DNA of 64,000 nucleotides, from assembly GCF_988242995.1 (NCBI RefSeq), contig NZ_OZ547043.1, one strand, 5' to 3'. Below are positions 43,529-45,181 of this stretch, piece after piece. The stretch's first letter is position 1, and each line of letters opens with the position of its first letter. A program made the position numbers and the translations under genes. The notes beneath the pieces were generated by a model. The model did no database searches, was not told where the DNA came from, and worked only from the letters and a program-made list of their open reading frames with translations.

Positions 43529-43963
43529 TTACAGCCTCTGTAACGGATTATCAGCCCTGGCATCTTCCGACGGCACCTCCTGCCGCCCCCACGCCCTGCT
43601 GTATACCCCGGTACCGCAGCGTGGGCAGCACTTTTCCCCCTCATAATCTTCGTCACACATCACACAAAACCACTTTCTCACCTTCACCGTATAATCCGGA
43701 ACCGTCATGCCCTGCAGATGCAAACGACGGGCCTCTTTCTCCGCCGGGTCAAGCCAGGTACATCGCAGCAGGATTTTTTCAGCGACAGTCATCTGGTCAT
43801 GTTCAAACCACGGTGGTTGTCCGTCATTGCCCCGCTGAAGTGTTAACGGGCATCCACAGGACACACAGCACAAAACGTCCTGTCGGTTGTGCTTCGCAGC
43901 TTCTTTCGCCGTAACAAAATGGCCTTTGCTGTCATTCGCCATATAACAGTTCAGAATTCGCAT
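43529..43963 (-). CDS. Putative zinc-ribbon protein (paralogue A), function unknown
   Basis: AGGAGG RBS before ATG 43963; motifs CxxCG...PPWFEH...WFCVMCDEDYEGEKCCPRCGTG shared with the adjacent upstream ORF. Confidence 0.6.
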   Translation of the reverse strand: MRILNCYMANDSKGHFVTAKEAAKHNRQDVLCCVSCGCPLTLQRGNDGQPPWFEHDQMTVAEKILLRCTWLDPAEKEARRLHLQGMTVPDYTVKVRKWFCVMCDEDYEGEKCCPRCGTGVYSRAWGRQEVPSEDARADNPLQRL

Positions 43964-44358
43964 ATTTCCTCCTGAGTTGTCCGGGGAATACTGAATCCTC
44001 CGGTCTGGCAGTGTGTGCAGTACTGCTCCCCATAATAATCGTGGTGACATTGTCTGCAGTGCCAGCTGGCTTTACGCACCACGGGTAAGGCATCCGGTAC
44101 GAATTGCTGCAGACGTTTAATCAACTGTATTTCTCTGCGCTCCGGCCTGACATAAGGGCACTGTTGACCGTGCTCTGTCAGCCTGTCGTCAGTGTGTTCA
44201 AACCAGGGAAGTTCAGTGTCGTATTGCGGATGGTATCTGAGTGCACTGCCACACAAGTGGCAGGTGTAGTGAGCATAAGGTGCGGCCTGTGCAGTACGGG
44301 CGCCCGTCAGACGTCCGTTGCTATCAAGAGCGATAAAGGATTTTGCGTACATAGTCAT
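43951..44358 (-). CDS. Putative zinc-ribbon protein (paralogue B), function unknown
   Basis: 135-aa ORF; GAGGAA RBS; motifs CHLCG...LPWFEH...WHCRQCHHDYYGEQYCTHCQTG; overlaps paralogue A by 13 nt. Confidence 0.6.
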   Translation of the reverse strand: MTMYAKSFIALDSNGRLTGARTAQAAPYAHYTCHLCGSALRYHPQYDTELPWFEHTDDRLTEHGQQCPYVRPERREIQLIKRLQQFVPDALPVVRKASWHCRQCHHDYYGEQYCTHCQTGGFSIPRTTQEEICEF

Positions 44359-44611
44359 ATTCCTCAGCCGCCAGACGACACGCAGGCAACAGCCGTCCCG
44401 GTACGGGCAGCGTGGTCAGGGTGTGAATGGCGGTTCAGTTAAAATCTGGACTGGAGTTTGGGTAAAGCAGGCTGGTTGCTGTTACAGCACTGTGGTTGTC
44501 ACACAATGGAACACTGACGTAAAAAACAGTCAGTGGACGAGTGGATACATCGTTGCCGCCAGACAACAACCCATACTTTTGGTTTGCCGGATATTGGCGC
44601 GCCAGTCGTGC

Positions 44612-45181
44612 TCAACTCCGGCTACAGCCAAAATTGCGCTCACCGGTGCAGTGAGCTTTGGTATGCTCCTTCGCCAGATAGTCAGCACGTTCCAGCACTT
44701 GCTGAAAGCCGGTGTCATCATTACGCGCCAGCCACACCGCCGGCCAGGCCGGAAAATGCACCAGCGTGGCATGGCACCCGACATCCACTCCCAGGGCACT
44801 GCACCACGCCTGTTTAATCATCCCGGCCAGAGACTCCGGAGCGCGGTAATCACCGGCACGACACCAGGTATCCCGGTTGACCAGCAGCATCAGGTGATAG
44901 TGTTTTTTACCTTTGAACTCCCCAAACTCCCGGGCCCAGACGTAATGCAGGGTTGTGGGATGCACGCGTTTACCTTCCCGATGCTTACGTTTCTGGTAAG
45001 CGTCGATTCGGGCTTTCAGGGCATTGATGAAGCGGGATATCACAGCTGCGTCCGTTGCTGCCGGTACATCCGGGAGACGCAGGTCAACCCGCAATGCCGT
45101 CAGGCGGGGATGAACATTCAGTGCGTGCCGCACCGTCTCACGAATACGTTGCTGCCAGAAGGGGTTGTATTTGTAGGTCAT
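44612..45181 (-). CDS. YagK/YfjJ-like protein (inovirus Gp2-type family of CP4 prophage remnants)
   Basis: 189 aa from MTYKYNPFWQQRIRETVRHALNVHPRL...; GGAG RBS; family assignment from memory of K-12 CP4 proteins. Confidence 0.65.
   Translation of the reverse strand: MTYKYNPFWQQRIRETVRHALNVHPRLTALRVDLRLPDVPAATDAAVISRFINALKARIDAYQKRKHREGKRVHPTTLHYVWAREFGEFKGKKHYHLMLLVNRDTWCRAGDYRAPESLAGMIKQAWCSALGVDVGCHATLVHFPAWPAVWLARNDDTGFQQVLERADYLAKEHTKAHCTGERNFGCSRS

Follow-up and report, generated by a model that had tools for sequence, protein, structure and literature searches.

The P2 Ogr and P4 Delta proteins of P4-like mobile elements are small, cysteine-rich zinc-finger activators of late genes, and Delta is a tandem duplicate of an Ogr-like unit. 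The RanBP2-type zinc finger (ZRANB2, PDB 2k1p/3g9y) is built on a W-x-C-x2-C...C-x2-C layout, and CoiA is reported to have a small putative zinc finger N-terminal to a PD-(D/E)xK nuclease (10.1101/2024.02.06.579203). Partial likenesses to all of these are seen in the products of two adjacent minus-strand genes, called znrA and znrB here, that lie in a 64,000-nucleotide stretch of contig NZ_OZ547043.1 (RefSeq assembly GCF_988242995.1), referred to below as the window. The genes belong to the conserved backbone of P4-integrase/AlpA-type islands of Enterobacterales. Their products may be zinc-stabilised accessory factors that serve DNA transactions of the island itself, an explanation that is favoured here tentatively and with somewhat less than even confidence.

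Both genes are present where a first-pass annotation of this DNA had placed them. znrA (positions 43951 to 44352, minus strand) encodes 133 amino acids and corresponds to RefSeq WP_000270986, a 'putative zinc ribbon protein', while znrB (43529 to 43963, minus strand) encodes a protein of 144 amino acids that begins with MRILNCY and corresponds to WP_001221615, a 'zinc-ribbon domain-containing protein'. The znrA start has been refined from position 44358, which gives a version of 135 amino acids, to the second ATG at 44352 (MYAKSF). This is the start that is conserved across genera and used by RefSeq, and the sequence GAGGA is found 9 nucleotides 5' of it. The two reading frames share 13 nucleotides (43951 to 43963), as originally reported, and the Shine-Dalgarno sequence of znrB, AGGAGG, sits within the 3' end of znrA, 4 nucleotides before the znrB ATG. 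An identical 13-nucleotide overlap is found in Salmonella, Hafnia, Mixta, Yokenella and a Klebsiella plasmid. From this arrangement the two genes are judged to be translationally coupled.

The paralogy that the first-pass annotation proposed is borne out by alignment. A two-sequence BLASTP comparison matches ZnrA to ZnrB across 125 residues at 32% identity (E 4e-16), and their cysteine motifs align as a CxxC knuckle, a WFEH segment and the pattern W-C-x2-C-x2-(D)Y-x-G-x3-C-x2-C-x-(T)G. As read from their sequences, the genes represent an old tandem duplication within one gene family. Such an arrangement echoes the tandem duplication in Delta by analogy only. The Ogr and Delta proteins differ from ZnrA and ZnrB in cysteine spacing and in size, and the Ogr_Delta profile has no Pfam match in ZnrA, in ZnrB or in 34 diverse relatives.

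The family itself is already catalogued. It was stated previously that the pair could not be assigned to a characterised family, and this claim has to be withdrawn, as both proteins consist of two Pfam families, are annotated in RefSeq and lack an assignment of function alone. ZnrA matches DUF7828 (PF25165; E 1.8e-31) and Zn_ribbon_11 (PF11682, formerly DUF3279; E 8.6e-9), and the corresponding values for ZnrB are 9.3e-31 and 1.7e-18. DUF7828 spans about 87 N-terminal residues and Zn_ribbon_11 is a 37-residue profile of a four-cysteine ribbon. The combination occurs in all 34 of the diverse relatives, and ZnrA and ZnrB are full-length members that show no difference from this architecture; their exact sequences are themselves RefSeq entries. 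The RefSeq name for the family is 'putative zinc ribbon protein', UniProt has 'Ybl85', and automatic annotation has mislabelled some UniProt entries, for example as 'RNA polymerase beta subunit'. The proteins are thus catalogued and functionally unstudied.

Ten positions are invariant among the 34 relatives: C33, C36, F53, H55, C67, W99, C101, C104, C114 and C117, in the numbering of the 135-residue version of ZnrA. The putative ligands in ZnrA (133-residue numbering) are C31, C34, H53 and C65 for a CCHC site and C99, C102, C112 and C115 for a C4 site. Those in ZnrB are C33, C36, H55 and C68, followed by C100, C103, C113 and C116. Each protein therefore carries two Cys/His clusters, as had been described, and is predicted to hold two zinc sites, CCHC in DUF7828 and CCCC in Zn_ribbon_11.

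The AlphaFold2 model of ZnrA is of fair confidence (predicted local distance difference test score, pLDDT, 80; predicted template modelling score, pTM, 0.69) and has a small beta/alpha N-terminal domain, a linker helix and a C-terminal beta-ribbon, and the Zn_ribbon_11 match in both proteins is in keeping with the ribbon that was originally suspected. Foldseek comparison of this model to AFDB50 returned family members only, under the names Ybl85, DUF3279 and the mislabel mentioned above, and comparison to the viral structures of BFVD returned nothing at E <=0.001. Sequence and profile searches of the PDB gave a sole match, to a RanBP2-type zinc finger, at E 0.33; the C-terminal ribbon of the Znr proteins has the layout of this finger. 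No NCBIfam match exists for ZnrA, ZnrB or the YagK-type protein encoded next to them.

The N-terminal domain resembles the N-terminal zinc finger of CoiA in its beta-strands, CxxC knuckle, (W/H)F(E/A)H segment and later cysteine. Similarity to CoiA_N (PF25164) was detected below threshold in 8 of the 34 members at E <=0.1, with a best value of 1.3e-3. CoiA differs in several respects. Its likeness to the Znr proteins falls below Pfam significance, it belongs to competence regulons and not to islands, and the Znr proteins have a C4 ribbon in place of the PD-(D/E)xK nuclease and the other C-terminal regions of CoiA. Membership of the CoiA family was rejected, given that CoiA_N similarity is sub-threshold only and that the nuclease domain PF06054 is absent in Pfam scans.

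The gene upstream of the pair (44612 to 45181, minus strand) encodes 189 amino acids and is of the YagK/YfjJ type ('inovirus Gp2 family'), as first proposed; PF11726 matches residues 21 to 187 with E 5.7e-48. The protein carries an HUH motif (HYHLMLLV) and a YxxK motif (YLAKEHTK) and matches REP_ORF2-G2P (PF23343) with E 3.7e-5. An alignment of seven sequences defines R31, D33, L34, H94, H96, Y168, K171 and K175 as invariant in the family, corresponding to the pattern R-x-D-L, H-x-H and Y-x-x-K-x3-K. A weak profile match (E 0.19) to the structure of SIRV1 ORF119, a Rep protein, falls exactly over the HUH motif. The protein also matches phrog_25019, whose annotation is 'unknown function'.

Because the HUH and YxxK motifs are kept, the YagK-type protein is predicted to be an HUH-type, single-tyrosine DNA endonuclease, or Rep-like. 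The same two motifs are found in HUH rolling-circle Rep proteins and relaxases such as inovirus G2P and SIRV1 ORF119. The placement of YagK/YfjJ among these proteins is a prediction from sequence. In many islands a second member of this kind, a Gp2-type paralogue (PF27752/UCP030791), follows znrB. It is a YagK homologue that lacks the HUH histidines and the tyrosine, and to judge from these losses it looks catalytically dead. The YagK-type and Gp2-type genes that were compared are the window gene at 44612 to 45181 and those at L014 8839-9474, L003 6810-7391 and L032 7900-8466, where L numbers denote the loci collected for this study.

Those loci comprise 21 from a species-level genome scan that used a 15-sequence alignment, four contig sets, one plasmid and three E. 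coli loci. In all 20 distinct Znr contexts sampled, covering many genera and one plasmid, a YagK-type gene is found at most 1.3 kilobases upstream on the same strand, so that the association first noticed in this window extends across genomes. Intact HUH (HYH, HAH or HIH with hydrophobic residues) and YxxK motifs are present in nearly all of these YagK-type genes, and the exceptions are truncated or disrupted copies (for example, L003 and L026). The E. coli K-12 yagK gene has no znr partner, which suggests a one-way dependence, of Znr on YagK-type genes. The yagN, ykgV and yagM genes of the K-12 CP4-6 element were considered as znr counterparts and rejected, as their translations do not resemble the Znr proteins.

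The commonest gene order is YagK-type, alpA, znrA, znrB with the 13-nucleotide overlap, the Gp2-type paralogue and DUF2913. Hafnia (L014) and an IncFIB/HI1B Klebsiella plasmid are examples. The spacing between znrB and the Gp2-type paralogue ranges from 5 to about 80 nucleotides and is 5 nucleotides in the Hafnia locus. Klebsiella islands have the order alpA, a 197-amino-acid gene, a 190-amino-acid YagK-type gene, a single znr gene and cargo. E. coli islands, including that of the window, have yagK, znrA and znrB followed by cargo or insertion sequence (IS) elements, with alpA divergent. What follows znrB is variable: a set comprising SNF2, AAA and S8 protease genes, a glycosyltransferase with a McrB-like protein, gentisate catabolism genes or IS elements. 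This variability after znrB places the znr pair at the boundary of the conserved backbone.

Locus L032 (NZ_CP082986.1, 66239-69637) holds the full six-gene module of a Gp2 family gene, alpA, znrA, znrB, a Gp2-type gene and DUF2913, and this module is found on IncFIB/IncHI1B conjugative Klebsiella plasmids of about 340 kilobases, with no integrase annotated within 7 kilobases. In several genera a stand-alone mini zinc ribbon of 45 amino acids, which includes RWKCPRCRRQYCGARPCPVCF, lies between alpA and znrA (L017 7730-7867, L019 7584-7865 and L021 1033-1314). A Serratia locus (L020 1592-4234) has up to five Znr-like reading frames in a row.

The variable genes adjoining znrB bear on a suggestion made in the first-pass annotation, that the pair has an accessory function related to defence. 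Were the yagK-znr cassette an anti-phage or anti-plasmid system, the presence in some hosts of the SNF2 helicase/AAA/S8 protease set or a McrB-like protein next to znrB would be in character, as would the nearby integrase. However, synteny with alpA, the YagK-type gene and DUF2913 stays constant while this downstream cargo varies; the pair is in the backbone, and cargo starts after znrB. The best PADLOC-DB 2.0 match, ZnrB to PDC-S64, has E 0.063 and covers a 30-residue stretch of zinc ribbon, and ZnrA and YagK have none. The proteins have no enzymatic or effector domain, and defence cargo would not typically be present in about 55-70% of E. coli genomes, often with 2-7 copies each. No match to ZnrA was found by tblastn in 50,697 phage genomes. 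The backbone position, the lack of a PADLOC match and the lack of a phage copy together leave the defence idea unsupported, and a cassette of this kind is considered very improbable.

A related proposal is that the Znr proteins are adaptors directed at the host or at competitors, such as anti-restriction, anti-defence or host-inhibiting proteins expressed early on island entry. The same backbone contains antirestriction, RadC-like and CbtA/CbeA genes, and small proteins like antirestriction/DUF932 may behave alike. Small, neutral, cysteine-rich proteins are suited to protein binding, and the expansion of the family to as many as five tandem copies in Serratia, together with the mini zinc ribbon of several genera, would fit such a role. 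Yet the genes are strictly linked, at short spacing, to the HUH-type and inactive Gp2-type genes and not to the antirestriction block, and the libraries searched gave no similarity to known anti-defence families. PHROGs likewise has no match for ZnrA or ZnrB. Adaptors of this type are regarded as unlikely, if less so than a defence system.

Several lines of evidence point instead to accessory factors of island DNA transactions: the backbone position, a synteny that is strict for an HUH-type gene and usual for alpA, the very short distance to a degenerate HUH paralogue in the canonical module, and a CoiA-N-like finger joined to a ribbon with no catalytic domain. In the mechanism that is proposed, ZnrA and ZnrB would be non-enzymatic, zinc-stabilised binding modules that are produced together. 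After induction they might assist AlpA, together with either the HUH protein or the inactive paralogue, in recognising or processing island DNA. The outcome could be control of excision, replication or mobilisation of a rolling-circle type, or regulation, and a conserved leader upstream of znrA would be a candidate target or control site. The proteins would count neither as cargo nor as a stand-alone defence system.

Some observations weigh against this proposal. Zinc binding is deduced solely from the invariant cysteines and histidine, and literature and structure searches found no experiment, structure or paper on the DUF7828/Zn_ribbon_11 family. That these islands undergo rolling-circle replication or mobilisation is itself a hypothesis. 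Some islands have a single znr gene, as in Klebsiella L007. The Znr proteins are near neutral, with isoelectric points of about 6-8, and strong non-specific DNA binding is not favoured at such values. An AlphaFold2 run on a fused ZnrA-(GGGGS)5-ZnrB sequence gave pTM 0.30 and pLDDT 56, leaving a heterodimer without in silico support, although the paired alignment was shallow (12 rows) and this outcome is not decisive. In view of the near-neutral charge and the failed dimer prediction, neither DNA binding nor heterodimer formation can be claimed strongly.

The space between yagK and znrA may contain sites on which such proteins act. It measures 253 nucleotides, or 259 to the conserved start. Directly upstream of znrA is an unannotated, non-coding leader of about 85 nucleotides (44361 to 44445, minus strand) with the core CCGGGACGGCTGTTGCCTGCGTGT at 44378-44401. 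Its identity to the loci of other genera is 81-93%, compared to 62-70% for the adjacent coding sequence, where the synonymous substitution rate (dS) is above 1.4. The leader is unique within the window and co-occurs with znr in 3773 E. coli genomes. It gave no signal of RNA structure, with a z score of -0.37, six alifold pairs showing essentially zero covariation, and no Rfam match. The lack of such a signal suggests that it is probably a DNA-level site, and its conservation makes it a candidate for an operator, a promoter or a site of DNA processing. It includes the hexamer GGGACG, which is bound by the AlpA antiterminator of Pseudomonas aeruginosa, a Q-like protein with DNA-contact residues up to position 142 (PMC9371919). 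This match is probably a coincidence, since the P. aeruginosa protein is far longer than the 68-amino-acid helix-turn-helix protein encoded by the island alpA and appears to be unrelated.

A second element in this space is the conserved motif TGTTTTTTACGTCAG (44512 to 44535, minus strand), which sits downstream of yagK in a hairpin with a 7-base-pair stem, CACTGAC-TGTTTTTTAC-GTCAGTG. A conserved origin hairpin was considered at this position and rejected, as the stem is lost in L007, L013 and L015 (Klebsiella, S. diarizonae and Mixta); the loop and motif sequence is kept in other loci and the stem is not. Farther from znrA, positions 44536 to 44611 (minus strand) align to the coding 3' ends of genes in Salmonella L003 and Klebsiella L007 and are read as the 3'-end remnant of a second yagK-like gene of the 190-amino-acid type. 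On this interpretation of the alignment, an earlier recombination event joined yagK to the znr leader here.

The sequence TTTTTTACG is present in six copies in the window where 0.58 are expected. Four of these are upstream of backbone genes and match their orientation: 44518-44526 (minus strand, in the TGTTTTTTACGTCAG element) for znrA, 45220-45228 (minus strand) for yagK, 46831-46839 (plus strand) for alpA and a fourth, unassigned, at 48713-48721 (minus strand). In other genera, too, copies precede alpA or yagK (L007 4098, L013 6057, L025 7579 and others). The element may be a shared promoter or operator, to judge by its placement.

These findings qualify the description of yagK, znrA and znrB as a three-gene operon. 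Cotranscription is plausible. Simple scans of the 253-nucleotide gap on the minus strand found no terminator-like or sigma-70-like site. The gap holds the yagK remnant, the conserved leader and the promoter-like TTTTTTACG, and in most other genera alpA intervenes between the YagK-type gene and znrA.

The same sites form much of the basis for the main rival, in which the Znr proteins are transcription regulators. They would be autoregulators or activators that bind the leader or TTTTTTACG, or else zinc-finger activators that bind RNA polymerase, a mode in which they would be analogous to P2 Ogr and P4 Delta. In favour of regulators, the leader is highly conserved and gives no RNA-structure signal, TTTTTTACG is in excess and has copies upstream of znrA, yagK and alpA, and in most genera the znr genes come right behind the regulator gene alpA. 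Near-neutral charge suits protein-protein contacts, and these islands have P4-like features, such as the P4 Vis-like AlpA of the SRL island (PMC6980539). Against regulators, Pfam scans of the 34 members found neither Ogr_Delta nor any transcription-factor domain, the pair is absent from the phage genomes searched, no link to a helper phage is known, and the leader has no sigma-70 promoter in simple scans. Regulators are rated as possible at a clearly minor level of confidence, and the data cannot separate them from accessory factors.

An extension of the accessory-factor proposal is more speculative. The YagK-type HUH protein, ZnrA and ZnrB, the dead Gp2 paralogue and the leader could together make up an unrecognised, rolling-circle-like replication or mobilisation module controlled by AlpA. 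The zinc proteins would then be factors for origin recognition or strand handling, and the leader or a nearby T-rich motif would be the nick site. The genomic islands that it serves would be those of the CP4-57/CP4-44/SRL-PAI-like family, the commonest in E. coli. This larger scheme is doubtful, and more so than a purely regulatory role.

Of 5426 complete E. coli genomes, 3821 contain znrAB DNA, and in 2985 (about 55% of the 5426) the match covers at least 80% of the query. The number of places per genome has a median of 2 and a maximum of 7. A hidden Markov model scan of 1.84 billion representatives recovered 272 family proteins, many of them fragments; the family is small. Named sources are all Enterobacterales: Salmonella, Citrobacter, Klebsiella, Enterobacter, Serratia, Hafnia, Mixta and Yokenella, with Budvicia, Yersinia, Pectobacterium and others in addition. 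ZnrA is rare on plasmids, where it occurs in 33 records, several of them chromosome-sized.

Near-identical znr sequences of the E. coli type were also encountered in a Collinsella metagenome-assembled genome (L011), a Bacillota metagenome-assembled genome (L012), and records assigned to Veillonella (P0004) and Pseudomonas aeruginosa (P0034). These records from unexpected taxa are on short contigs and most likely reflect contamination or mis-binning.

Decay was considered as an explanation for these genes, as databases hold many truncated or frameshifted znr copies and IS elements disrupt some of them (for example, H104). On this account znrA and znrB would be decaying or non-functional reading frames of a cryptic element. 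In comparison to orthologues from five other genera, the ratio of nonsynonymous to synonymous substitution rates (dN/dS) is 0.12-0.18 for znrA and 0.11-0.29 for znrB, with dS saturated, which indicates that both genes are functional and under purifying selection. The 34 diverse sequences share ten invariant residues, the start, ribosome-binding site and 13-nucleotide overlap are all conserved, and the exact ZnrA and ZnrB sequences each occur on about 1000 or more contigs. Decay is largely refuted by these selection and conservation data and retains almost no credibility.

The pair sits in a tRNA-Phe island, with the tRNA at 38647-38719. From there the order is a P4-type integrase, an IS110 fragment, IS66, znrB, znrA, the yagK-like gene, an Hha-like gene and a hypothetical gene. 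Beyond the hypothetical gene, alpA, the DUF2913-like gene and GTPase/Ag43 genes run in the opposite direction. The alpA-family helix-turn-helix gene (PF05930 type; 46928 to 47134, plus strand) is identified from the RefSeq annotation of the near-identical locus L001 and from neighbourhood analysis. It is divergent in the window, whereas in most other genera alpA is on the same strand and directly upstream of znrA. A backbone reading frame of 205 amino acids (47214 to 47831, plus strand) is DUF2913-like and homologous to the RefSeq DUF2913-family gene of plasmid locus L032. In the canonical module the DUF2913 gene comes after znrA-znrB and the Gp2-like paralogue; a literature search on DUF2913 and UCP030791 found nothing relevant. 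The Hha/YmoA-family gene (45876-46220, minus strand) has lost a stop codon at 46045, where TTA replaces the TGA of L001, and this change lengthens the reading frame from 58 to 114 codons.

At present, the pair is a correctly spotted but already catalogued combination of domains of unknown function, and its features go beyond what chance would give. Its biological setting gives it wider relevance. More than one in two complete E. coli genomes contain znr genes, often as multiple copies, and the islands concerned are those whose cargo includes virulence, resistance and defence genes. How integrase/AlpA islands replicate, are regulated or move is little understood. Should YagK, as an HUH-type protein, and the Znr pair prove to be a functional unit, they would offer an experimental way into the life cycle of such 'cryptic prophage-like' islands.

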